Below, one piece after another: positions 9,723 through 60,788 of a stretch of DNA of 64,000 nt. The stretch covers positions 107,074 through 171,073 of the forward strand of contig CAWCRG010000017.1 in the NCBI GenBank assembly GCA_963797915.1. Reading direction: 5' to 3'. Origin of the DNA: Candidatus Sericytochromatia bacterium (GTDB taxonomy: Bacteria > Cyanobacteriota > Sericytochromatia > UBA7694). The translations under genes and the position numbers were made by a program. Position 1 is the first letter of the stretch. Each line of letters opens with the position of its first letter. The notes under the pieces were generated by a model that saw only the letters and a program-made list of their open reading frames with translations, was not told the origin of the DNA and did not search any database.

Positions 9723-10996
9723 ATGTTAAATTTTGACCTCGTAGATATTGGTGAGCTACACAGCTTTGCCACCGACTTCTCTGGCCCGCTCACGCCCTCT
9801 CAAATCGCCCGGCACCTGCAACCCATTCGACAAGGGTTTCTACACATTCGAGAAGGTCGCGTGGCCGGTATGGGCTCCATGAGCGATTATCATAAACCCA
9901 CCAATGCCGATATTCCGCAGCAGAGCCTTGCGGGTAAGACCGTTCTGCCCGGCCTTGTGGATCCACACACCCATTTGGTTTTTGGGGGATCGCGTGAGCA
10001 TGAACTCGTGGCGCGCATTGAAAAACAACGGGATGAACAGCCTTCAAAAGGCGCGCGGATGCTGAGCGGGATTAATTACACCGTACAGTGTACCCGTGAC
10101 GCCTCTGCTGAGCAGCTGGCGACCGAGGCTTTAGGCCGCCTGGATCGTATGCTGCTTCACGGGACGACGACCGCAGAGGCCAAAAGTGGTTATGGCCTGC
10201 GTTTAGATCAAGAAATTAAACTCCTGGAAGTGGTGCAAGCCCTTCAATCGCAGCACCCCATACATTTGGTGTCTACATTTTGGGAGCTCATGCGGTGCCT
10301 CAGGGTATGGCGATGGACGACTACGTTGCACAGGTGTTGAAGATGATTCCTGTGATTGCAGAGCGCCAGCTGGCAAGTTTTTGCGATGTCTTTTGCGAGA
10401 CTGGTTTCTTTTCTGTAGAGGACAGTCGCCAAATCCTCAAGCTTGCCAGCTTTCACGGTTTAAAGTTGAAGGTCCATGCCGATGAGTTAGATCATTCCGG
10501 GGGGGCAGCACTTGCAGCAGAGCTGGGAGCGATCTCCGCTGACCATTTACAGTTTGCCAGTCAAGCTGATCTTGAGGCCATGAAAGCAGCGGGAACCATT
10601 CCGGTGCTTTTACCCGGTACCGCTTTTTATCTGGGTTTACCGTACGCCAACGCACAATTGATGCATCAGTTAGATATGCCCATTGCCATTTCTACCGACT
10701 TGAATCCCGGAGGCTGTTATTGTGAGTCTCAGGTCATGATGGCCGTTTTAGCCGTGACGCAAATGCATTTATTACCCGTCGAGGCTTTTGTGGGCATTAC
10801 CCGCAACGCGGCTTATGCTATTGATCGCGGCACTGAAGCCGGTACTTTGGCTGTGGGGCGCTCTGCTGATCTTGTGGTCGTTGACGCCCCCAATCTGGAC
10901 TATATTCCCTATCACTTTGGTGTGAACCTGGTGGAAGATGTCTATATTGGGGGACAAAAGCGAGTGTCAAAGGGCGTTTTAGAACCCGTCCTTTAA
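9723..10996 (+). CDS. hutI: Imidazolonepropionase (histidine utilisation), interrupted by a -1 frameshift at a T4 run (~10278..10284)
   Basis: VLPGLVDPHTHLVFGGSRE and HADELDHSGGAALAAELGA...AISTDLNPG motifs match HutI. ORF 9723..10340 (frame 0) and ORF 10280..10996 (frame 2) join as ...HLVSTF-LGAHAVPQG if a fifth T is inserted. Confidence 0.8.
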
Positions 10997-11472
10997 AGTC
11001 TGTTCTCCGGTGAACGTAATGGAGTAACTCATTTCCTTACTGCCCATAGGCGCGCTTTCCGTCAGCATATTTAATCCCACAAGACGATTTAAGGCTTGCT
11101 GCACATCGGTTTCGCTTTTGCCTAAACGCTCAAAAATCTGCGTTTCTAACAGATCGCTGCGACTGAACAAATTCATTTGCTTAAAGCGCTCTAAATAGAG
11201 GCCAATGACCAAAATCATATCGGTAATTTCTTTCGGGCCTTTGGTCTTGATAAATTCAGGGAGAGTAGGGAGCGCGCGCTGCGGTGCCGCCATTTTTCCC
11301 GGCGTGTTGTTTCCACCTTCAGACTCGCTCTGAAGTTCTGGAGGTAGCTCCTGCTGGAACAATTGCAACCATTTCTCCATTTGTGTTTCCACAAAGACCT
11401 GGTCACCTCCAAGATGAATTTCTTTGTTTCCGATTTTTAAACCAAATTGATACTGTATAGAATCTGACATAC
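10979..11472 (-). CDS. Hypothetical protein wedged between hutI and the hutF-like gene
   Basis: 184-aa ORF. The likely start is MSDSIQ at 11472, which has an AAGGA ribosome-binding site. No recognisable motif. Confidence 0.35.
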
Positions 11473-11507
11473 GGCTTTCCTTTACTGCAGGGATTAGGCT
11501 AGAATAC

Positions 11508-12890
11508 GTGCTGTTCAGTTTAGCAAATCCCACAAACCCCGGAGGTTTTTTGTTGACCTTACGTATTTATGCCCGCTATTTAGAAACCGGTAACGCGCTG
11601 TTCTGTGATCAACTTCTTGAGGTGGATTCCCACGGTCGTATTTCAACTTGTCGCTCCTTGCGGAAGGATGAGCCGATGCCCTCTTGTGTTTATGATTACG
11701 TGGTTCCCGGATGTGTAAATGCCCACAGCCACGCGTTTCAGGTGCTCTTACGCCCCACCACGGGGCAGCCGCAACATTTTAAGGATTGGGTCGATCGCTT
11801 TCTTTATCCTTGTGTACTCGCCTTAGATGAAGAACGCCTTTATGCCTCAGCAGTACTGGTTTTTCACGAAATGCTTCGGGCCGGGATTACCACGGTGGGC
11901 GAGTTTCACTATGTGAATAACTTGCCTGACGGTCAATCCAGTGAGCAGTTATACGCCCATACCCTGATTCGGGCCGCAGAAACCGTAGGTCTACGTATCT
12001 CTCTGATTCGCACCCTTTACGATCAGCGAAACAAGCCGGGGCAAATGCGTTTTCAAGAGTCGCTTGAGCAGGCGATGACACAAACCGAAGCGCTGGCTCG
12101 CCGTTATGCTGACAACCCGCTTGTATCGGTGCTGCCTGCGCCGCACTCTCTTCACGGTGCCAGCCGCGAGCTGGTGTGTGCGGGGGCCGAGCTGGCGAAA
12201 CGTTTGGGTACGCCCTGGCATATTCATCTTTCGGAACAGCCCGGTGATGCGGAATTTGCCATCGAGCGTTACGGCTTAAGGCCTCTGGCTTGTCTAGAGA
12301 GTTGGGGCATTTTAGACCAGGATGCCTGTATTATTCATGGCATCTGGTTCGATGATGACGATCTTGAACGCATGCAGACGCACGCCTGTCGTCAGGTGTA
12401 CAATCCCCTTACCAATATGGCTCTGGGAGACGGTATTGCGCGGCTGCCCGAATTATTAGCGCGCGGCGTGCCAGTGGCTTTAGGCACAGACGCCAATACC
12501 GACAGTTCCTTGTTTTTAGAAGCGCGCATGGCAGAATATCTGCAGCGCAGCCAACAGCTCTCGATGGGCCATGTGTCGGCAGAGCAATTGTTTGCCATGA
12601 CGAATCGCAACGGGGCTCACGCGCTGGGGCTTTCCACGGGTCACCTTGCTGTCGGTCAGGCTGCTGATTTTCTGGCCATAAACCTTTCGAGTCCCAGCAT
12701 GTTACCCGCCAGGGTGACAAAGGAGACGGGCCCGGACGCCTTACGGCAGGCGCTGTTAAACCAGCTCTTGTTCTCTGCCGTTCCGCAAGAGGCCATTCAG
12801 GCGGTTTATGTGGCGGGGCAAAAGCGCATCGAGTCGGGAAAGCATGTGCGTATTGATCTGGCCACTATTTTTCAGTCTGTTTTTGAATGA
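11508..12890 (+). CDS. Amidohydrolase-superfamily deaminase, HutF-like (formimidoylglutamate deiminase)
   Basis: Metal-binding HxH (VNAHSHAFQ) and HIHLSE motifs, ~460 aa, adjacent to hutI. Confidence 0.55.
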   Translation: MLFSLANPTNPGGFLLTLRIYARYLETGNALFCDQLLEVDSHGRISTCRSLRKDEPMPSCVYDYVVPGCVNAHSHAFQVLLRPTTGQPQHFKDWVDRFLYPCVLALDEERLYASAVLVFHEMLRAGITTVGEFHYVNNLPDGQSSEQLYAHTLIRAAETVGLRISLIRTLYDQRNKPGQMRFQESLEQAMTQTEALARRYADNPLVSVLPAPHSLHGASRELVCAGAELAKRLGTPWHIHLSEQPGDAEFAIERYGLRPLACLESWGILDQDACIIHGIWFDDDDLERMQTHACRQVYNPLTNMALGDGIARLPELLARGVPVALGTDANTDSSLFLEARMAEYLQRSQQLSMGHVSAEQLFAMTNRNGAHALGLSTGHLAVGQAADFLAINLSSPSMLPARVTKETGPDALRQALLNQLLFSAVPQEAIQAVYVAGQKRIESGKHVRIDLATIFQSVFE

Positions 12891-21481: not shown

Positions 21482-22423
21482 ATGCTGACTTCTCCGACCC
21501 CCTGGATCTTGTTTCTATTAGGGACCATTATTGGCAGTTTTCTGAATGTCGTTATTTATCGTACCCCTGTCATCCTATTGGCAGGTTGGAACGATGAAGA
21601 CGATGACGCAGAAGAAGTACTGGAAATTCCAGAAGCTTTTGGACCCCGTCTGGGGTTTACGCTTCGCTACTTTTTTTCAGATGTGCTGTACTCTTTTTCT
21701 TATTTGCTCAAGGACTTTTGGGTGGAGATCTATCAGGTGCTGAAGGGTCTGTCTTTTCCAGGCTCTCGCTGTGGTCAATGTCAGCGAGATATTGCCTGGT
21801 ATGATAATCTTCCCGTTTTGAGCTGGTTTATTTTAAGAGGGCGTTGCCGGCATTGTCATACAAGCTACAGTTTTCGCTATCCGCTTATTGAGTTTCTGAC
21901 GGGACTGCTCTTCGTTTATACCTATAGTTTGTATCCCCAACCTCTAGACTTAATGTTCTGGATTCCGTTGGTGAGCTTGTTATGGGCTATTTTTTGGATT
22001 GACCTTGATACCGAGTTTGTCTTCAATGTGATGACATACCCAAGTATTTTGCTGGGGATCCTATATAATGGGTCTAAAGTTAATTTGGGCTGGGCCTTAA
22101 TGGGTGGTCTGATTGCCTGGTGTTTCTTTGAAGGTGTTGCACTTTTGAGTGTTTTCCTCCTTAAGAAACAAGGGATGGGAGGCGGCGACGTTAAACTCGC
22201 GATTCTCATGGGCATCTGGTTAGGTCCTGAACAATTACTGGTGGCATTGGCGATAGCCTTTGTGACTGGGAGCATCGTGGGGGTAACTCTGATGTTAAAA
22301 CAAGGCGAAAGCAAACCTTTTCCCTTTGGTCCCTTTCTGGTGGTAGGTATGTTACTTTCCATGGCGGTTGGGGAACAACTGTGGGCGTGGTATATTGGTA
22401 AGTCAGTTTTGTCACCGGTATGA
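21482..22423 (+). CDS. pilD: Type IV prepilin peptidase / N-methyltransferase (A24 family)
   Basis: CGQC...CRHC zinc-binding tetracysteine, the GGGDVKL catalytic Asp motif and multiple TM segments. Contains an unusual ~60 aa acidic insert (NDEDDDAEEVLE...) after TM1. Confidence 0.8.
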   Translation: MLTSPTPWILFLLGTIIGSFLNVVIYRTPVILLAGWNDEDDDAEEVLEIPEAFGPRLGFTLRYFFSDVLYSFSYLLKDFWVEIYQVLKGLSFPGSRCGQCQRDIAWYDNLPVLSWFILRGRCRHCHTSYSFRYPLIEFLTGLLFVYTYSLYPQPLDLMFWIPLVSLLWAIFWIDLDTEFVFNVMTYPSILLGILYNGSKVNLGWALMGGLIAWCFFEGVALLSVFLLKKQGMGGGDVKLAILMGIWLGPEQLLVALAIAFVTGSIVGVTLMLKQGESKPFPFGPFLVVGMLLSMAVGEQLWAWYIGKSVLSPV

Positions 22424-22460
22424 ACTATAAAGCAAAGCAAGAGGCTTTAAAGAAGAAAAA

Positions 22461-23621
22461 ATGAACTTATTTGGTCGTGAAATAAACACGAAGAGCTTCC
22501 TTCGCTCTTTCTCCAGCCGTTTTTCTAAAGAACCCCCCATTGGTATTGATATTACCAATGAGTTCATTATTGCCGCTGAGCTTGCTGAAGTGCAAAATCA
22601 ACCGGGTCAATATGAAATCATTCGTCTGGCTCTCACAGAGACGCCTGAAGGCGCTGTTCGCGACGGAGAAGTGGTGGACAGCCTCCGCGTGGCGGAAGCC
22701 CTAAAAAACTTTTTAGATGAACATCAGTTTAAATCCCGTCGGGTCATCACCGCGGTATCAGGTCAAGCGGCGATTATTCGCCCCCGCATTAAGTTTCCTG
22801 CCATTCCGATTAAGGAATTACAGGAAGTGGTTATGCATGACGCAGAGCGCTATATCCCTTTCCCTATTCAGGATGTATATATTGACTTCCAGGTGACCGG
22901 TACCGTTGAAGAAGACAATATGACAAAGTATGATGTGCTGTTGGTGACCGCACAAAAACAGCTCATTGACACCTATATCGAGACCTTTGCCCAGGCAGAG
23001 CTTACGCTTGTGGCCGTAGATGTGGCTTCTTTCGCTGTTATGCGTGCTATCGAAGAGCAATTGTCTCAAGAAGAGGGCGAAGAACAGCAGCTTAATGTTT
23101 TGATTCTGATCCGAGGAGAAACCACTGATCTTAACGTCGTGCAAAATGGTGCGCCCCTTTTCTCTCGGAGTATTCCCTTGGGTAGTAGCACCATGATTGA
23201 AACCATCGCTGCAGGCATGGGGCTTGAACTTCAAGAGGCTGTGGCGCTTTTTGATAAGCTGGTTATTCCTGTGGTGGGCGATGAAACCTTTGAAGATCCC
23301 ATGGTCGAGCGCGCTGCTGATGAGATTCGTATGTTATTACAGGAGCTGACGGGTGAGATTAATAAATCTATTGACTACTTTCATCAATCGCAACAAGAAT
23401 ATATGCGTATTCAGCAGCTGATTCTTTCAGATCGTGGTGCCAAAATTAAAAACCTTGACCAGTACTTTGCCCATAAGCTGGGCATGGATGTCGAAATTAG
23501 TAACCCGATTCGCTCACTCTCATTTGATGAGACCGTTTTTTCAGCGGCTTATCTTAATGAAAATGCGCCTCTGTTTGCTACTGCGATTGGACTTGCACGG
23601 AGAGGAATTGAAGAAAATTGA
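22461..23621 (+). CDS. pilM: Type IV pilus assembly protein PilM (actin-like ATPase fold)
   Basis: 386 aa with the PilM-like pattern (IGIDI..., acidic central region). First gene of the pilMNOPQ cluster. Confidence 0.8.
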   Translation: MNLFGREINTKSFLRSFSSRFSKEPPIGIDITNEFIIAAELAEVQNQPGQYEIIRLALTETPEGAVRDGEVVDSLRVAEALKNFLDEHQFKSRRVITAVSGQAAIIRPRIKFPAIPIKELQEVVMHDAERYIPFPIQDVYIDFQVTGTVEEDNMTKYDVLLVTAQKQLIDTYIETFAQAELTLVAVDVASFAVMRAIEEQLSQEEGEEQQLNVLILIRGETTDLNVVQNGAPLFSRSIPLGSSTMIETIAAGMGLELQEAVALFDKLVIPVVGDETFEDPMVERAADEIRMLLQELTGEINKSIDYFHQSQQEYMRIQQLILSDRGAKIKNLDQYFAHKLGMDVEISNPIRSLSFDETVFSAAYLNENAPLFATAIGLARRGIEEN

Positions 23622-24178
23622 CACGCATTAGCATTAACCTTCTCGGCATTGACCGAAAGGAAGCACTTCAGCGCTCAGGCCTTAACATTGATAAAGGGCT
23701 AGCGATTGCTATGACCTCTATCATTATTGCGCTCCTGCTTCTTTTTGGGTCCAACGCCCTCATGAGCAGCCAGCTGGCTGCCGCTGAAGAGCTTAAAGAA
23801 GAAAACACATTAAAAATAGCAGCTCTCGATAAACAAATTGAAGAGATTAAAAGTCTCGAAAAAGAAAAAGCGGATAAAGAGATGGAGGAGAAAATCCTTC
23901 GTTACGTGACCGGAGAAACCTATCGCTGGTCTTATTTACTCCAAGAAGTCCGTTTGCTCATGCCCGTTGATATTAAAATTGATCAGTTATCCTTTAATCC
24001 CCAGGGTGAGTTCTCTTTGCAGGGCTCAGCCACCGATCACCGTTCAGTAGCGATGTTCCTGGCAAACCTTAAAAACTCGAAGATGCTGCAAAACATTCAG
24101 TTGCAAAGCAGCGAAAAACCTTCTGCAGAGGAACCAACTGTGTTTAGCATTACGTGCAAATTGAAAGTGGGAAGCTAA
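23618..24178 (+). CDS. pilN: Type IV pilus assembly protein PilN
   Basis: N-terminal INLLG motif, a single TM and a coiled coil. Overlaps the pilM stop. Confidence 0.7.
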   Translation: MTRISINLLGIDRKEALQRSGLNIDKGLAIAMTSIIIALLLLFGSNALMSSQLAAAEELKEENTLKIAALDKQIEEIKSLEKEKADKEMEEKILRYVTGETYRWSYLLQEVRLLMPVDIKIDQLSFNPQGEFSLQGSATDHRSVAMFLANLKNSKMLQNIQLQSSEKPSAEEPTVFSITCKLKVGS

Positions 24179-24181
24179 GTT

Positions 24182-24835
24182 ATGCCAACTATCGAAGCTT
24201 TCGGCCGTTCCTTTAATACCGACAATATTACGACCTTTCACAAGGTTTTAATTGGCGGAGTTACAGCTGCCCTGATTGTTTTTGGGGGAGGCTATCAAAT
24301 GGTCTATCCCAAGTGGGAAAACCTGCAAGTCCTTAACGAAGAAACAGAGCAACAGCAAAGCGATATCGAAAAAAAGCAAATTCAGGTAAAAAATCTGGAT
24401 AAACTTAAAGAAGAGTTGAAGGTTGTTCAGGCCAGTCTGGTGGCGCTGCGTCGTAAGATCCCAACAACGGCCAATGAGTCTCCACTGCTTTTAGATGTCG
24501 AAGAAATTACAGAAAATAAAGCGTTGTACGGTAACTCTGCGGTTTTGAACACCTTTAAGCCTGGCGGAATTGTTGACTTTACTTTGCCTGCTGAGTTACA
24601 GAGTGCTTCTGAATCTCCTGCTGCAAAGCAACTCAAGCAATTACCCGTACAGATTCAATTGAGCAAGGTGTCTTATCCTGAATTGATTGAGATGCTACAA
24701 GATCTTGAAAACTATGAACGAACGTTGAGCATTGAAGGCTTAACGATCGAACCCCAAAATGATCCCCAGGCCTTGTATACACCGGTCAATGTTTCTTTCA
24801 CATTGAAGGCCTTTTTGATAGAAGGAGCAAGTTAA
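24182..24835 (+). CDS. pilO: Type IV pilus assembly protein PilO
   Basis: TM helix, coiled coil and C-terminal periplasmic domain. Position in the cluster supports the call. Confidence 0.65.
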   Translation: MPTIEAFGRSFNTDNITTFHKVLIGGVTAALIVFGGGYQMVYPKWENLQVLNEETEQQQSDIEKKQIQVKNLDKLKEELKVVQASLVALRRKIPTTANESPLLLDVEEITENKALYGNSAVLNTFKPGGIVDFTLPAELQSASESPAAKQLKQLPVQIQLSKVSYPELIEMLQDLENYERTLSIEGLTIEPQNDPQALYTPVNVSFTLKAFLIEGAS

Positions 24836-25563
24836 TGTTAGGACACGCTTTAATCCTATCAAGTATGTGTGTCGCAGCGACAGGTCTCTTACTTTACTCA
24901 TTAAGCTTACCGCCTGAAGATTTAGGTAATGACCCAACAGTTATTGTGGTTGCGACGCCGGAGCCGGTTGTCACCGCCTCGGGCACCCCTGATACTGGTG
25001 AGTCTCCTGATGCTACAGTGGTTGCTGTCGCATCAGCTACGCCTGCCCCAACACCCACTCCCACCCCAAAGCCCACGGTAGATCCTTTAACGTCTTATAA
25101 TATTGCCGCGAGTACGCCTCAGGCCGTGCTTAGACAAGCCCAGGTGCATGCCGGGCGGGTGGATCCTTTTAAGTCTGTTCAGCCCCCTGATCTGCCCGAT
25201 TTTGAACCGGCTATTTCAGCGAATCAGCTGGCCTTACCCGCTGCGTTTCCGATGGTTAAGTCCGATAAACCCGTGAATACCGTCCCCTCTCGCACACCTA
25301 ATATTATAGAAACACAACCGACGCCTCCACCGGCAAAACCCCTGACACATGGGCTTTCCTTAAAAGGTATTATGGATGGAGGAATCGATCCGATTGCGAT
25401 TATTGAAATCAATGGTCGCACAGAGCTCTTTCGTGTGGGCGAACGCCTGCCCAATAATATTCGCGTCACTTCAATTAACTATGAAGAACGACGTGTGACT
25501 TTGTCTCGTGGCCAGGCTACGGGAACCCTTTATCTTCCCGAACCAAATAGCCCTAATTTTTAG
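24835..25563 (+). CDS. pilP: PilP-like pilus assembly lipoprotein with a Pro/Thr-rich linker
   Basis: Hydrophobic N-terminus, PT-rich low-complexity segment and a C-terminal beta domain (IIEINGRTELFRVGERL...VTSINYEERRVTL). Confidence 0.55.
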   Translation: MLGHALILSSMCVAATGLLLYSLSLPPEDLGNDPTVIVVATPEPVVTASGTPDTGESPDATVVAVASATPAPTPTPTPKPTVDPLTSYNIAASTPQAVLRQAQVHAGRVDPFKSVQPPDLPDFEPAISANQLALPAAFPMVKSDKPVNTVPSRTPNIIETQPTPPPAKPLTHGLSLKGIMDGGIDPIAIIEINGRTELFRVGERLPNNIRVTSINYEERRVTLSRGQATGTLYLPEPNSPNF

Positions 25564-25575
25564 GAGGAAAGACAT

Positions 25576-27174
25576 ATGAAAATTTCTACATTTAAACGTA
25601 AAAGCACAACTGCTCTTGCCACTTTAACCTTGCTAACGACCATGACTTCCACGGCATGGGCCGATAACAGACAGGTCGTTAATCCTCCTGTAGCAGGTGC
25701 TACTGACGCATTAACGATTCGTAAAGCCTTTCGTTTAGAAAAAGACCCCCTGATTAGCATTGTGCAACGCAATGCGAATGTGGAGTTTATTTTACGGGGA
25801 CTGGCGCAAAAAGCGGGCTTGAACCTGGTTTTTATGGCTGGTGATAACGCTGCTGCGACAGCGCAAGCTGCCTCCCTGGCACCCGCTTCATCGGGTGGAG
25901 ATGACGCTGCGTTAATGGAGTTAGCAGCGCTTGCGGGTAATACAAACGCCGCTTCTTCAGGAGCCGCTCCCAGTGCTATGGTTGCAAAAATGACCATTCC
26001 CTATCTGGAGTTGCGAGACATTCCATTGAGCGAAGCCTTTTCGCTTATTCTGCAAATGAGTGGGTTGAGCGGACGTCGGGTGTATAATTCGCTTATTATT
26101 ACAACGCCAGCAAAAATGGATCAAATGGGCTTTGCTTCCCCGCTCATTAAAACCTACACGATTTATAACCAGGCAGCGACGCTTGCTGTACAGAGTGGTG
26201 CCGCTGGTGGTGCTGGTGGCTGGTAGCTGCTGGTGGTGCTGGTGGCGGAGCGTGGTGGTGCTGGTGGTGCTGGTGGTGGCGTTATGTCGCCCATTGTGCA
26301 ACAACTCCAGGCTGTTTTTAGACGCCGTGGTTTGAACCCTGCGCCTGAGCTATTGATTGACCAGCGTACGGCAACCCTGATTGTGATCGGGAGCCAGGAA
26401 GCAATCGATATTGCTGATCAGCTGGTTCCTATACTTGACCGTGCTTTGCCTCAGGTGAATGTAGAAGTGAAAATGATTGAGCTTACCCAACGGGCAAGCC
26501 AGGAACTTGGCTTGAGTTATGAAATTGGGCAGGGGCAGACCGCTGCCGCCTTTAACAACAGCGCGATTTTACCGGGCCAGGCGCCGAATCCTCCTGCCGC
26601 TGAGGGTGAGTCACTCGTCAGCTTTAGCACCCTTAATCGCTTGGCCCCCAACTTTAGTGCGCGCTTGAACGCGTTGATTCGAGACAGTCAGGCCAGAGTG
26701 TTGACCAGTCCACGCTTGACGATTCAGCACGGAGTTCAGGCGATCTTTGACTCTACCACAGCGTTTCCTATTATTAGCACCACAGCTACAGCCACTGCGG
26801 CTACGCAGACGGTTCAGAGTATCAATATTGGTGAAAAACTGACGATTACGCCTTTTGTTGATTTGGAAAAAGGCTTGATTACGATGAAGCTGGTGCCTGA
26901 AATTTCTACCCGCGGTGAGTTGGTAAGTGCCGGTGGCCAGACCATTCCCGAAGTCAACAATCGCAAAGTTGATACGATTTTGACTGTTGAAGACGGTGAG
27001 TCGGTGGTCATTGGCGGACTGATGCGCAAAACGGATACCGAAGTCAAAAACAAGATTCCTTTATTGGGCGATATTCCTTTACTGGGCGCATTGTTTTCTG
27101 ATACGGTAACCAGCAAAGAAGATGTTGAAATTCTAATTATGGTTACTCCCCGTATTTTAAAGAGTGGCCGGTAA
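25576..27174 (+). CDS. pilQ: Type IV pilus secretin PilQ, interrupted by an in-frame TAG (26224..26226) inside a Gly/Ala (GGTGCT)n microsatellite
   Basis: ORF 25576..26226 has the signal peptide and N-terminal secretin/STN-type domains. ORF 26233..27174 is in the same frame and holds the secretin_N plus C-terminal secretin domain (IPLLGDIPLLGALF). A 19-nt direct repeat flanks the stop, with the second copy in a shifted frame. Confidence 0.8.
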
Positions 27175-37073: not shown

Positions 37074-38990
37074 ATGACACAATCTTCAGCTCCCCCCGAT
37101 TTAAACCGTATTGGTGATTTGCTCGTAAAAGAAGGGCTTCTTACCCCGGATGCTTTACAAAAAGCCTTAAAGTATCAAAAGGACTCTGAGGGGTATAAAC
37201 CCCTCGGACGGGTTTGTGTCGATCTTAAGCTACTCTCTAAAGTCGATTTGCAACGCTTTTTGCGTAAACATCAAAAAAGTATTCACCTGGGAGATATCCT
37301 CTTGAATATGGGTTTGATTACCCATGAGCAGTTGAATCATGTTCTCGAACAGCAAAAAGTCACCCAATTGCGCTTTGGAGACTTGCTCGTTAGACACAAC
37401 GTGATTTCTGAGTCGCAATTGGTGGAGGCTTTAAGCTTACAGCTTGATTTGCCCCGTATTGTGCCCTCTCCGGAATTGGTTGACCGCGAACTATTGAAAG
37501 CCCTCGATGAAGGCTTTTTGAGATCTTATGAGTGCTTGCCGATCCATAAATACGAAAATCAAATGGTGGTGGTCATGTCGGACCCGCTCAACGGGGAGCT
37601 GATCCAGCGTTTGATCGATGTGTTTAAATGTAAAATTATGCCGTCTATTGCTACGCCCACAGAGATTTTGGCCTGTATCAGTGCGTTATTTGATGCCGAG
37701 TCCACCCGTTTGAACAATTTAAACATGGACCATGACTTACTGCAGGTGACCCACCAACATCATCTGAGTGAAGAAAAACTCATGCCCGTGGCTCAGTTTT
37801 TGGTGCGTTCTGCTGTAGAGGCTGGAGCCACGGCGCTGCATGTGGAGACCCATGAAAATTATGTGCGTGTTCGCTATCGTATTGACGGTGTCTTGCAGCA
37901 TAAAACCGATCTTCCTCAGCGCATGGCCCCCATGCTCATTCAGTGTATGAAAACACCGTTTCGCTTAAAACGTCAGCGGTATTGGGAAGAACATATCACC
38001 ACGCAAGTGGGAACGAAGAAAGTGAATTTGTCGATCTCCTTTTTTCCAGGCATCTGGGGCGAAAGCCTTGTGATGCATATTTCTCATCCCAAAGCAAATT
38101 TTATTGGTTTAGAATATCTGGGCTTGTCTCCCTTTGTGCAAGGGCAGTTGAATAGAGGCTTGTCTCGTGCCGGTGGCTTAATGATTGCCGTCAGCCCCAT
38201 TCGTAACGGCAAGACCACCCTGCTCTATTCTTGGTTGGCTCACGTGGGGAAAGCGCATCACAATACCCTAACCCTCGAAGATAATATTGAGCATCAGTTG
38301 CCTGGCACAACCCAGTACCAATACCCTCCTAACTCCACCGACAGTTATGAATCCATGATCGAAGCGATGATTGATTATGACTCTGATGTCATGATGGTGA
38401 GTGCCGTTAAAAATAAAGAAGTGGCGTTGCGCTTGAATCGCGCTGCATTGGTGGGCAAAAAAGTTTTTTCTTCGGTGGCCTCAAACGATACAACGACAGC
38501 CATTTATCAGCTCATGGAGATGGAGGCCAATGCGCTATTGGCAACTCCAGCGCCGGTCATGCTGGTGGCGCAGAAGCTTTTGCGTAAACTCTGCGAGCAT
38601 TGCCGTGAGGCGGTTCCTCTGGCGGCTGTTCAATTGCAGAAACTGGGCGTGACGCTAAAGCAGACAGAAAAGCGTTCGGTATATGAGGCGCGCGGGTGCG
38701 AAGCGTGTGAGCACCTGGGATACTCAGGAATGACAGCTCTACATGAAGTGTTTGAAATCTCTGAAGCCGATCGCCAGGTGATTTTGAAAGGCGGAACCGC
38801 CTCTGCGATTCGAGAACAGGCACGCCAGCACCGGCGTCTGATGTCAATGGTTGAAGACGGTGTTTATAAATCATTGATTGGTTTGACTAGCCTCGAAGAG
38901 GTATTGAATACCGTGCTGATTTATGAGGAAGATCTTAACACCCCGCGCAATGTGGAAGACATTTATTATTTGTGTAACGGTGAGGCTTAA
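37074..38990 (+). CDS. Catalytically degenerate GspE/MshE-family pseudo-ATPase with two tandem MshEN-type c-di-GMP-binding modules, a GspE_N domain and the C-terminal Cys4 zinc site
   Basis: Four copies of the 24-residue MshEN motif RLGxxLLxxGLLxxxxLxxxLxxQ (for example RIGDLLVKEGLLTPDALQKALKYQ). Walker A is degraded (SPIRNGKT vs GPTGSGKST), Walker B GEIRD is replaced by SAVKN, and both His-box histidines are lost (VGKKVFSSVASN). The CxxC...CxxC zinc site is retained. Confidence 0.7.
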   Translation: MTQSSAPPDLNRIGDLLVKEGLLTPDALQKALKYQKDSEGYKPLGRVCVDLKLLSKVDLQRFLRKHQKSIHLGDILLNMGLITHEQLNHVLEQQKVTQLRFGDLLVRHNVISESQLVEALSLQLDLPRIVPSPELVDRELLKALDEGFLRSYECLPIHKYENQMVVVMSDPLNGELIQRLIDVFKCKIMPSIATPTEILACISALFDAESTRLNNLNMDHDLLQVTHQHHLSEEKLMPVAQFLVRSAVEAGATALHVETHENYVRVRYRIDGVLQHKTDLPQRMAPMLIQCMKTPFRLKRQRYWEEHITTQVGTKKVNLSISFFPGIWGESLVMHISHPKANFIGLEYLGLSPFVQGQLNRGLSRAGGLMIAVSPIRNGKTTLLYSWLAHVGKAHHNTLTLEDNIEHQLPGTTQYQYPPNSTDSYESMIEAMIDYDSDVMMVSAVKNKEVALRLNRAALVGKKVFSSVASNDTTTAIYQLMEMEANALLATPAPVMLVAQKLLRKLCEHCREAVPLAAVQLQKLGVTLKQTEKRSVYEARGCEACEHLGYSGMTALHEVFEISEADRQVILKGGTASAIREQARQHRRLMSMVEDGVYKSLIGLTSLEEVLNTVLIYEEDLNTPRNVEDIYYLCNGEA

Positions 38991-38992
38991 GG

Positions 38993-41347
38993 TTAATCGG
39001 GCTTCACTTTAGAAAGGGCCTCTTCAAGGGAGGTTAGGCCTTCTTTAACCTTGCCCATGGCATCCCAGTAGAGGGTAATCATGCCCTCTGCAACGGCCAT
39101 CTTTTTAAGGGCTTCAGCCGAAATACCTGGCTGTGTGATGGCGTTGCGAATGCTCTCATTGGGCACCAGTAGCTCATGAATGCCTGTCCGACCGCGGTAA
39201 CCCGTGTCATTGCAGGCCTTACACCCCTCTGCCTTATAAAGCGTTAACGGCGTACCGTTGGTGTGTCCCAATTGATTCATTTCTAGCTCGCCAGCCTCAT
39301 AGGGTGATTTGCATTCTGTACATAAGCGGCGTATCAGGCGTTGGGCACAAATCATGAGTACGGAAGGGCTAATCATAAAGGGAGAAATGCCCATTTCAAT
39401 AAATCGCGTCAGGGTAGAAGCTGCATCATTGGTATGCAGCGTAGATAAAAGCAGATGACCCGTAAGGGCTGCCTCGACGGCAATATGTGCGGTTTCGTGA
39501 TCTCGAATTTCTCCCACGAGGATCACGTCGGGATCCTGGCGAAGGTAAGCGCGTAAGGCGCGGGCAAACGTGAGTCCAATTTCGGGCTGGACCTGGAGCT
39601 GGTTAATATTAGGCAGGGTGTACTCAATGGGATCTTCAGCGGTTTGAATATTAATGTGGGGTTGATTAATTTCATTGAGGGCTGAATACAGCGTCATTGA
39701 CTTACCTGAGCCGGTGGGTCCCACATGTAAAATCATACCGTAGGGGCTTTGCAATAGCTCGCGATAACGCTTTAGGTTATAGTCTGAAAAACCAAGTGAT
39801 GACAGCGGTAGCATGCTTTTTTGCTTGTCTAAAATACGCATGACCACTTTTTCGCCATAGTTCATGGGGGCTGTCGAAATACGCAGGTCAAAGTCTAAGC
39901 CTTTGCGATTAAACTGTTTATAGACAATGCGACCATCCTGGGGCAAGCGCCGCTCCGCAATATTGAGCTGTGCCATGATTTTTAAACGGGCCGAGAGGGG
40001 CTGGATCAAACTGGCCGGTGTGAGCTGATGATAGTCTTTTAAGATCCCGTCTACGCGGTAACGCACCCTCACGTTGTGCTCCCGGCTCTCAATATGAATA
40101 TCTGAGGCTTTTGCCTCATAAGCTTCCTCGATTAAACGATTCACTAAGCGAATCATGGGAGCGCTTGTGGGATCGTCTAAGCCGACGACTTCTTTCGCGC
40201 TGTTGCTATCGCTGACATACTGAGACTGCAACTCATCCATGAGATCTTCCATCTCATGCGCCTTTTGTTTGGGGGTCTTGGGTGCCGCGGGCACTGTTAC
40301 AGCTCCAGCTGCTGCGGGCGTTTGTTGAAACAAGCGTTGTAAGACCGCTGGAATGGCAATGAACCGTGACGCTTTACGATAGTTAAGGAGGGTGTCCTGA
40401 ACTTCAATTTGAAAGGGATGAGCGAGGGCAAAGCTCAATTGGTTTTTGTCGTTATCAAAAGGAACCACGCTGTACTTACGACAAAAGGGCATGGGGAGAA
40501 CGCCGGGTCTAAGCTGTTGGGTTTCTACATCGGTTAAAAAAGGCAAGCCGGTATAGGTCGAGACCATTCCTGCGGTTTGGCTGGCGCTGACGCCGTGTAA
40601 AAGCAGTTGCTCGTAAACATTGTCTGGCTTGAGATCCTTGACGATTTCCTGAGGAAGACTTTCTTCTAGAAATTTGCAAAATCCGGCAAAACTTGCGCGA
40701 TCGGCCTGGGAGCTTGACTGCGTTTTTTGTGGGCTTTGGGGGACTAAGCTGAGTTCTTTGGCTGCGGGTACAAACAGGTTTTCGGCAACGGCTGCGGTTT
40801 GGGGCTGCGCGGCTGCAAAAGCCGGTAAAGGGGGAGTAGATACCTGGGGCGCTTTTTCAATCTGACTTTGTTCAGCAGTCTTTGCCAGGGGAGGCTCTGG
40901 TTTAGTAGGGGCTTTAGCAGGGGCTGAGGGTGTCTGAGCGACAAAATTGCTGCGCCACTGTTTTTCGACTTCCAGTGCCTTTTTGACTTGCTCACTCAAT
41001 ACCTCTAGCGTCAGTGGTTTATTTAAGAAACCCACGGCGCCCATTTGAAAAGCCTGTAGACGATTTTCAGCTTGTAAACTCGCGGTAATCATAATGATCG
41101 GAATCAGAGCCAGCCGAGGATCTGACTGTAGCTCTTCACACACCTCATAACCCGACATACCCGGCATCTCAATATCCAGTAAGATCAAGCGGGCTTCGAG
41201 ATGATGCTGGCGTAAAAGCTGCAGTGCTCTTTTGCCGTTATCTATCGCTTCTACGGTAAACCCGGAATGACTGAGCATGCTCTTGACGAGCGTGCTCATG
41301 TCCTTATCATCATCTATAACGAGAATATCTACGTTCTGCATATACAA
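38993..41347 (-). CDS. Response-regulator receiver (REC) domain fused to a GspE/PilB-type secretion/pilus assembly ATPase
   Basis: N-terminal REC with the phospho-acceptor context (LILLDIEMPGMSG). GspE_N domain. Intact Walker A (GPTGSGKS), Asp box, Walker B (VGEIRD), His box (TGHLLLSTLHTN) and Cys4 zinc site. Confidence 0.8.
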   Translation of the reverse strand: MYMQNVDILVIDDDKDMSTLVKSMLSHSGFTVEAIDNGKRALQLLRQHHLEARLILLDIEMPGMSGYEVCEELQSDPRLALIPIIMITASLQAENRLQAFQMGAVGFLNKPLTLEVLSEQVKKALEVEKQWRSNFVAQTPSAPAKAPTKPEPPLAKTAEQSQIEKAPQVSTPPLPAFAAAQPQTAAVAENLFVPAAKELSLVPQSPQKTQSSSQADRASFAGFCKFLEESLPQEIVKDLKPDNVYEQLLLHGVSASQTAGMVSTYTGLPFLTDVETQQLRPGVLPMPFCRKYSVVPFDNDKNQLSFALAHPFQIEVQDTLLNYRKASRFIAIPAVLQRLFQQTPAAAGAVTVPAAPKTPKQKAHEMEDLMDELQSQYVSDSNSAKEVVGLDDPTSAPMIRLVNRLIEEAYEAKASDIHIESREHNVRVRYRVDGILKDYHQLTPASLIQPLSARLKIMAQLNIAERRLPQDGRIVYKQFNRKGLDFDLRISTAPMNYGEKVVMRILDKQKSMLPLSSLGFSDYNLKRYRELLQSPYGMILHVGPTGSGKSMTLYSALNEINQPHINIQTAEDPIEYTLPNINQLQVQPEIGLTFARALRAYLRQDPDVILVGEIRDHETAHIAVEAALTGHLLLSTLHTNDAASTLTRFIEMGISPFMISPSVLMICAQRLIRRLCTECKSPYEAGELEMNQLGHTNGTPLTLYKAEGCKACNDTGYRGRTGIHELLVPNESIRNAITQPGISAEALKKMAVAEGMITLYWDAMGKVKEGLTSLEEALSKVKPD

Positions 41348-60050: not shown

Positions 60051-60080
60051 GTTTAGACTTTAAAAATTCTGGGAATATAC
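60051..60080 (+). promoter_or_regulatory. Candidate sigma70-type promoter (TTTAGA-18-TATACT) in the AT-rich leader of the pilin gene
   Basis: Hexamers seen directly. No sigma54 GG-N10-GC element was found upstream of the pilin. Confidence 0.25.
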
Positions 60081-60159
60081 TATTAGATTTTAAAAAGACA
60101 TTTGTTTTAAAGACATTTTTTAAAGTAAATGGCTACTCAATATTCAGAGGTAAAAAGAT

Positions 60160-60408
60160 ATGATTAAGTCTCTCAAAAAGCAACAGGGCGGTTTCACCCT
60201 GATTGAATTAATGGTTGTAATTGTTATTATTGGTATTCTGGTTGCCATCGCGCTTCCTAACTTTATTGGTGCTCAAGATCGCGCCAAAGTTGCCAGTGTT
60301 AAAGCAAATATGCACACCTTCCAAACTGCTCTTGAAACCTACGCAGTAGATTGGGGTGGTCAATATCCTGGTGACTTTGGCGCCGCCAGAAGCTCAAGCG
60401 ACAACTGA
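60160..60408 (+). CDS. pilA: Type IVa major pilin, a short Geobacter-type form (class III signal peptide G|FTLIELMVV...)
   Basis: KKQQGGFTLIELMVVIVIIGILVAIALPNF prepilin signature. 71-aa mature length ending ...TYAVDWGGQYPGDFGAARSSSDN, which parallels the truncated Geobacter PilA-N. Confidence 0.75.
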   Translation: MIKSLKKQQGGFTLIELMVVIVIIGILVAIALPNFIGAQDRAKVASVKANMHTFQTALETYAVDWGGQYPGDFGAARSSSDN

Positions 60409-60598
60409 TGGCTATTGGAAAGAATTTGTCAATCCAGTAGATAAAGCCCAGGCTAACCTGGTTGCTGTCGGAACTGCAACCCCCGGTGCTGTTATGTATG
60501 ATGCCGTTAACACCACTCGTTATTATATTTACGGTGGAGACAAGCAGGGTGCTCAAATTAGAGATAAAGGTCAACCTTTCGTACTTGGCAATAGCTAA
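60356..60598 (+). CDS. Pilin globular-domain ORF overlapping the pilA 3' end in the +1 frame. Either a separate PilA-C-like protein or the frame-shifted C-terminus of a full-length pilin
   Basis: 80-aa ORF (GTG start) opening at 60350, right next to a GGGG run (60353..60356). The sequence YIYGGDKQGAQIRDKGQPFVLGNS is compatible with a pilin C-terminal beta-sheet domain. No Cys pair. Confidence 0.4.
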   Translation: MVNILVTLAPPEAQATTDGYWKEFVNPVDKAQANLVAVGTATPGAVMYDAVNTTRYYIYGGDKQGAQIRDKGQPFVLGNS

Positions 60599-60641
60599 GA
60601 AGCTAAACGCACCCTTCAAGCCCCATTTAAAAATCATAAAA

Positions 60642-60676
60642 ACAGAGTAGAAGCTTAATCTTTTACTCTGTTTTTT
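60642..60676 (+). terminator. Rho-independent terminator downstream of the pilin locus
   Basis: 12-bp stem (acagagtagaag / cttttactctgt), 6-nt loop, then TTTTTT. Confidence 0.55.
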
Positions 60677-60746
60677 AGTGATCTTCGCTGTGGTATCTGT
60701 GCCGTTATCTCTTGGGTAATTAATGTCCACAATTCAAGAGACGCTT

Positions 60747-60788
60747 CTAGCCGATGTTATTCTAGCCGTGTTATTCTAGCCGTGTTAA
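60747..60788. repeat. Three tandem copies of a 14-nt unit (ctagccgtgttatt) upstream of the YfhO-family gene
   Basis: ctagccgatgttatt / ctagccgtgttatt / ctagccgtgttaa read directly. Confidence 0.6.

Follow-up and report, generated by a model that had tools for sequence, protein, structure and literature searches.

In a non-photosynthetic member of the Cyanobacteriota (Sericytochromatia), two overlapping open reading frames (ORF1 and ORF2) very probably form, judging from sequence comparison, a single gene for an ordinary major type IV pilin, split in two by one extra base. Analysis of the 64-kb stretch of DNA that holds them (the window) established a one-gene architecture and the position of the lesion, and turned up nothing to suggest that ORF2 is expressed on its own or through recoding. 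In its intact form the gene has 145 codons, 11 for the leader and 134 for the mature protein. It sits in a conserved place after rplM-rpsI, where a promoter-like site and a GAGG ribosome-binding site of its own precede it and a single terminator follows. The extra base, seven codons into the variable region, would shift the frame onto a stop six codons further on. The predicted product is a 71-aa mature stub, made up of the alpha-1 helix plus the first part of the alpha-beta loop, and the beta-sheet head would be left untranslated in the +1 frame. Since this is one broken gene and not a two-gene pilin, the finding is ordinary.

The pilin locus and its two frames

ORF1 (60160-60408, plus strand) is the 5' part of the pilin gene and encodes 82 aa, of which 71 form the mature peptide, as a preliminary description of this DNA had reported. 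Its 11-aa leader (60160-60192) reads MIKSLKKQQGG/FTLIEL, where the slash marks the cleavage site; the cleavage context is MIKSLKKQQGG/FTLIELMVVIVIIGILVAIALP, or MIKSLKKQQGG/FTLIELMVVIVIIGILVAIALPNF in a longer reading. All the hallmarks of a class III signal are present: a short basic leader, Gly-1, Phe+1, Glu+5, and a hydrophobic stretch of about 20 residues. ORF1 matched the N_methyl family PF07963 with 41.2 bits (cut-off 21.2; E 1e-10) and TIGR02532 with 35.3 bits (cut-off 16.3). It scored under the cut-offs of the GspG, PilA, and ComGC models, reaching on its own 61.2 bits against TIGR01710 (GspG; cut-off 88.85) and 17 bits against PF08334 (cut-off 21). These scores suggest that it may not be a T2SS GspG.

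Downstream from the leader, ORF1 contains the alpha-1 helix and six to seven codons of the variable region. From about 60389 to the TGA stop it is an out-of-frame reading whose last six residues are RSSSDN; the mature peptide ends in GDFGAARSSSDN, and the end of the ORF reads YPGDFGAARSSSDN-TGA. The first out-of-frame codon, AGA, is rare here (2.2 per 1000) and the +1 frame uses common codons, which fits an accidental frame for the ORF1 tail.

ORF2, as listed mechanically (60356-60598, plus strand), encodes 80 aa in the +1 frame relative to ORF1. It overlaps ORF1 by 53 nt and opens with a GTG immediately after a GGGG run at 60353-60356. The preliminary description had correctly placed such an 80-aa ORF inside the pilin ORF, in another frame and beside the GGGG run. 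The native 3' part of the gene is shorter (60389..60598, plus strand, +1 frame relative to ORF1), as a tblastn search with the restored protein indicated; it encodes the remainder of the alpha-beta loop, four predicted beta strands, and the conserved C-terminus KDKGQPFVLGNS.

One set of expression signals brackets the whole gene. A promoter-like -35/-10 pair (TTTAGA or TAGACT ... TATACT; 60052..60081, plus strand) had nine out of 12 matches in a consensus scan, which is weak evidence. Direct reading of the sequence found a Shine-Dalgarno GAGG at 60147..60150 (plus strand), 9 nt 5' of the pilin ATG, within a block (CTCAATATTCAGAGGTAAAAA) that is the same in the DNA alignment of the window with two intact loci, L001 and L002. 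An intrinsic terminator hairpin with a U-run follows the full-length gene (60633..60682, plus strand; RNA fold -21 kcal/mol, z -6.9). The intact gene of L002 has a hairpin of other sequence at the same position (z -7.1), and in both cases there is only one terminator, 3' of the whole gene.

The window also carries machinery that could handle a pilin. Genes for pilD, pilM, pilN, pilO, a pilP-like protein, and pilQ lie at 21482..27174 on the plus strand (Pfam A24_N_bact/Peptidase_A24, PilM_2, PilN, PilO, STN, and Secretin), so the machinery beside the pilin is of the PilMNOPQ type and not Gsp, and both a prepilin peptidase and assembly machinery are found within the 64 kb. There are two PilB/GspE-type ATPases, arranged back to back (Pfam T2SSE, MshEN, and Response_reg; NCBIfam TIGR02538): one with an MshEN (c-di-GMP-binding) N-terminus (37074-38990, plus strand) and a 784-aa protein with an N-terminal response-regulator receiver domain (38993-41347, minus strand). 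We found no other prepilin motif within the window, and thus the broken gene is the only pilin that the window offers to its PilD/PilMNOPQ machinery. Rfam and tRNA scans of the window returned no match.

Intact relatives and the restored protein

Using a conceptual fusion of both frames as a query against a collection of 5.8 billion proteins, we recovered more than 100 single-ORF pilins, 143-181 aa long, that cover 94%-100% of the fusion. The best matches were P0001 (144 aa, 82%), P0002 (149 aa, 80%), and P0003 (145 aa, 78%), and the named matches were pilins of Candidatus Sericytochromatia, Melainabacteria, or Blackallbacteria. Intact homologues in metagenome-assembled genomes (MAGs) of Sericytochromatia and Melainabacteria are annotated as "type IV pilin protein" or "type II secretion system protein G". 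The sole short match, P0087, was ORF2 itself, from the 363-kb source record.

Gene order supports the same correspondence. The loci of P0002 (L001/L003, MAG CAXRDE01) and of P0001 (L002, with L076) have the order rplM-rpsI-pilin-(YfhO)-Mpo1, as in the window, with an intact pilin of 144-149 aa. Among the loci fetched from other Sericytochromatia assemblies, the pilin next to rplM-rpsI was intact in all 13 complete genes (13/13). Scanning a single genome for each species yielded 73 loci; 70 of the 72 complete loci of other genomes were in frame, the exceptions being paralogues in L015 and L017, and about 70 ended in the family C-terminus LxN(S/Q/G).

Conservation along the family is uneven. Residues 1-70 are 100% identical in the window and P0001-P0004 and nearly so across Sericytochromatia. 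The full identity coexists with synonymous DNA changes between the three aligned genes. The middle of the protein is hypervariable in sequence and length, and the C-terminal pattern Y.[IVL]YG..K....DKG..F.L.N[SQ] is kept as far as Melainabacteria/Obscuribacterales. The pilin has no cysteine and therefore no D-region disulfide.

Aligning the window gene with the DNA of L002 and L001 revealed a single one-column gap in both orthologues, opposite GCCGCC-A-GAAGCT, which places the frameshift, one extra base, at 60386..60392 (plus strand). The context is GCCGCCAGAAGCT, and the exact extra base is ambiguous within about 60386-60392. There is no homopolymer and no tandem repeat at this site (longest run 2 nt); an allele one base shorter would read GCCGCCGAAGCT or GCCGCAGAAGCT. 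Deleting any one base of 60386-60388 yields a 145-aa protein with the stretch YPGDFGAAEAQATTDGYWKEF (WGGQYPGDFGAAEAQATTDGYWKEFVNPVDK when extended), and this stretch agrees in length and pattern with YPTNSANAKTQATTDGYWKEF of P0001 (extended, WGGQYPTNSANAKTQATTDGYWKEFVNPVDK).

As its second reading, the preliminary description had proposed a single pilin of ~145 aa broken by a homopolymer error at the GGGG run. The single broken gene stands; the site does not, and sequencing error is not established as the cause. The extra base lies 30-36 nt 3' of the run. Moreover, the aligned window gene and both intact orthologues share GATTGGGGTGGTCAA, which includes the run, without change; it encodes D64, W65, G66, and G67, all but W65 being invariant among 57 family members. 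Removing a G there destroys the invariant WGGQYP, so the check that had been suggested, looking for reads with three Gs, would mislead.

Beyond the one base, the restored pilin showed no sign of decay. It keeps all of the invariant columns (48/48) of the 57-sequence alignment, and nine of the 48 (Y85, K87, N91, P92, G109, Y121, Y124, L142, and N144) fall in the share encoded by ORF2. Restored residues 77-145 map to 60389-60595 in frame 2 with 100% identity (tblastn). AlphaFold2, given the family alignment, confidently predicted a type IV pilin fold for the restored protein (pLDDT 88.8, pTM 0.73). In the model, residues 14-64 form a helix and residues 73-83 a short one, and the four strands lie in the region from 100 to 143. 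The shift occurs at codon 77, within the alpha-beta loop, and this leaves ORF1 as a helix-only stub with the entire predicted sheet in ORF2. As the gene now reads, helix and beta sheet are not joined in one polypeptide.

In other respects the gene resembles known major type IV pilins. The class III signal peptide G/FTLIE is shared with Thermus thermophilus PilA4 (6xxd), Myxococcus xanthus PilA (8tj2), and the MAG pilins; the restored reading has an alpha-1 helix of roughly 50 residues followed by a predicted four-stranded beta head; and pilD, pilMNOPQ, and pilB genes are nearby in the window. Unlike these pilins, which are intact, the window gene is interrupted by one base, and only the helix would be made as written.

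Alternatives to a single interrupted gene

The first reading in the preliminary description was a PilA-N/PilA-C two-gene pilin, as in Geobacter. In such an arrangement, ORF1 would be a functional pilin of the PilA-N type and ORF2 a separately expressed PilA-C-type domain acting as a filament partner or chaperone. In the Desulfuromonadales, pilA-N and pilA-C are separate conserved genes of one operon, and fission of a full-length pilin has been proposed as their origin (PMC6201914). The likeness to the Geobacter sulfurreducens pair PilA-N (GSU1496)/PilA-C (GSU1497) is superficial: a short helical prepilin ORF with a similar alpha-1 precedes a beta-rich ORF, ORF1 retains Glu5, an undamaged leader, and the complete alpha-1 helix, the mature length of its product (71 aa) is near that of Geobacter PilA-N (61 aa), and all four predicted beta strands of the pilin head are encoded by ORF2. 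ORF1 also matches geopilin chains (7tgg, 9egp, and 2m7g/6vk9; E 1.7e-9 to 7e-8). However, this similarity is limited to residues 3-64, the generic alpha-1 helix, and leaves the 18-residue tail unaligned, contrary to the earlier impression that the tail resembles the C-terminus of Geobacter PilA-N; in the same PDB search Myxococcus PilA matched better (3.6e-10) than 7tgg (2e-9) or 2m7g/6vk9 (7e-8).

The relatives also argue against a split, which was seen in none of them: the >100 homologues and the 13/13 complete syntenic orthologues are single ORFs. Whereas the Geobacter genes are separate and conserved within an operon, the split in the window occurs in one record, with a 53-nt overlap between different frames, and ORF2, unlike PilA-C, has neither translation signals nor PilA-C similarity. 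There was no Shine-Dalgarno-like motif within 20 nt of any of its possible starts (GTG 60356, GTG 60371, and TTG 60377); ORF2 also lacks a signal peptide and any ATG ahead of codon 47. A search of ORF2 against the PDB at E<=10 returned only noise and no PilA-C chain, even though 6vk9 was present among the structures searched. The opening 11 codons of ORF2 (the VNILVTLAPPE region) are an out-of-frame reading of the pilin codons WGGQYPGDFGAA; homology to intact pilins begins at 60389, 3' of every ORF2 start, and so the extra N-terminal codons are out-of-frame pilin sequence, just as the last six residues of ORF1 are. As a separate gene ORF2 was found in no record besides the source, and the downstream ORF with its own ribosome-binding site and separate conservation that had been named as a way to distinguish the readings was not found: it has no Shine-Dalgarno motif and is conserved in no relative. 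On the sequence evidence the Geobacter-style two-gene reading is refuted, and we give a functional split of this kind hardly any chance.

Two further readings would keep the shifted gene in service. Full-length pilin might be made from it by a programmed +1 ribosomal frameshift, as RF2 is from prfB. Rare A-site codons can favour +1 slippage (as in prfB and in shifting at rare Arg codons), and here the shift needed is indeed +1 and the rare AGA codon (2.2 per 1000) lies in the shift region; the trans-frame peptide across GAA/EAQ would be GDFGAAEAQATTDGYWK. But GCC GCC AGA AGC offers the P-site tRNA no slippery re-pairing (GCC to CCA, AGA to GAA, or AAC to ACU at the stop), the shift site lacks both a Shine-Dalgarno-like stimulator upstream and any RNA structure of its own (z +1.3), and the shift is conserved in no orthologue, all of which have one frame. 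With no tRNA re-pairing and no shifted relative, recoding is exceedingly unlikely. Alternatively, the pilin could be phase-variable, a contingency locus switched by slipped-strand mispairing. Pilins are classic phase-variable genes, and the paralogous pilin of L017, another Sericytochromatia MAG, is shifted inside a G8 run (GATTGGGGGGGGCC). Against this, the lesion in GCCGCCAGAAGCT has runs of <=2 nt and no tandem repeat, the GGGG run of the window has its wild-type length, and 70/72 complete loci elsewhere are in frame; we consider phase variation highly improbable. A single gene interrupted by one extra base thus remains our preferred reading. The frameshifted paralogues themselves (L017 2260-2815 and L015 4078-4620) have the C-terminus LSNG and are not adjacent to rpsI; the G8 run GATTGGGGGGGGCC of L017 corresponds to GATTGGGGTGGCC in L015, which has an extra G at CTGCGGCCTGG.

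Origin of the extra base and its consequences

We were also interested in whether the extra base is a real mutation. We lean slightly toward a genuine, very recent loss-of-function allele over an assembly error in a strain-variable island. Four Logan contigs, an independent assembly of run ERR12040027, could be compared with the window over 14,359 nt, with seven mismatches and no indels. One of the other broken genes provided a direct comparison. The hutI gene (imidazolonepropionase; 9723-10996, plus strand) is split into ORFs of 205 aa and 238 aa that match profile positions 3-148 and 148-376, with one base missing at about 10278-10284 (ACATTTTGGGAGC, STF/LGAHAVP). This frameshift is repeated base for base in Logan contig L079 (2682-3955; five mismatches, no gaps), and therefore at least the hutI lesion is present in the reads. 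The hutI match, the lack of indels in Logan, and a pilin site that is not a homopolymer together favour a real allele. The idea that the whole assembly is riddled with indels was weakened by the L079 match and by the absence of indels over 14.4 kb.

On the other hand, coverage by the Logan contigs ends at 60326 and begins again at 63403, both edges of the island that holds the pilin, and the lesion is 62 nt inside it. These breaks indicate that the island is polymorphic in that sample and prone to assembly error. In addition, four of about 57 window genes are broken, each by a minimal lesion without further decay, a pattern that, taken by itself, would point to consensus errors. Besides the pilin and hutI, the gene of a roughly 1215-aa protein (1445-5075, plus strand; no Pfam or NCBIfam family) is divided between an ORF of 365 aa (1445-2542) and one of 909 aa, with a 197-nt overlap. 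The homologue P0142 (1205 aa) covers both, which places the junction near 2366-2376 (SLLQL / NIQPGEREAL), and relatives are 1200-1400 aa long. The pilQ secretin gene (25576-27174, plus strand) is also interrupted, with positions 40-78 and 135-428 of the NCBIfam PilQ model on two pieces. It has an in-frame TAG inside a Gly/Ala-coding GGT/GCT repeat (26195-26280), which appears to hold two compensating one-base shifts around the TAG (GAAGGAGGW-stop-LLVVLVAERGGAGGAGGGV). Logan contig L078 ends at 26213, just 5' of that TAG. Look-ups of the 365-aa ORF, the hutI-adjacent amidohydrolase, and a minus-strand ORF at 10979-11533 returned no record. We noted AGCT 3-5 nt 3' of three out of five inferred indel sites (60391, 10285, and 26225; background 7% of positions, nominal p 0.003). 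This 4-mer was singled out post hoc from about 136, however, and the enrichment is not significant.

The strain-variable island (60327-63402) consists of the variable 3' half of the pilin gene and a gene for an 852-aa YfhO-like polytopic membrane protein (60880..63438, plus strand). The latter matches PF09586 on its C-terminal part with an E of 1.6e-6 and 27.2 bits, slightly below the cut-off of 28.5. It is 57% identical to the copy in L002/L076, and the flanking S9 is 97%-100% identical; the gene is absent from L001, L003, and L004. The last 85 residues of the pilin have 69% identity to the best relative, and a search with this variable C-terminal part found only P0087 and three intact pilins (<=69% identity). 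Exact look-ups of ORF1, ORF2, and YfhO in a contig index returned no record, both ORFs occurring only in the source record, and a 29-nt exact scan of JGI metagenomes for the window allele, intact or broken, had no matches.

Pilin allele groups of Pseudomonas aeruginosa carry linked accessory genes 3' of pilA (tfpO/pilO, tfpW, and others), and their loci appear alike in organisation, with a conserved pilin N-terminus, a hypervariable C-terminal half, and, directly 3' of it, a variable and at times missing gene for a polytopic membrane protein, all lying between conserved flanks. The analogy is one of locus organisation only, as YfhO has no sequence relationship to TfpO/TfpW and no evidence of glycosylation was seen. 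One could speculate that the YfhO-like protein modifies the pilin. In several loci of Obscuribacterales, too, a YfhO-like gene is found at a distance of about 1 kb from the pilin.

The significance of these results beyond annotation hygiene is small. The 82-aa and 80-aa proteins of the source record are spurious; a single pilin gene with a frameshift flag should replace them. Were the lesion real, the population would lack a full-length product of the rpsI-adjacent pilin gene, and possibly PilQ as well, with a predicted loss of twitching motility, DNA uptake, and sensitivity to pilus phages; this would be routine variation. It is a long shot that a real frameshift has left a stub that PilD still processes and that enters the pilus, which would make the lineage a natural snapshot of the first step on the fission route proposed for the short pilins of Geobacter, with a full-length pilin newly reduced to a helix-only one of 71 aa and its beta domain left behind downstream. 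The same faint odds apply to a milder version, in which the lineage, its pilA and pilQ each being interrupted, would be losing its type IV pili, for instance as a result of pressure from pilus-specific phages. More generally, a helix-only pilin ORF followed by a beta-rich ORF should not be taken as evidence for a Geobacter-type nanowire unless the split is conserved.
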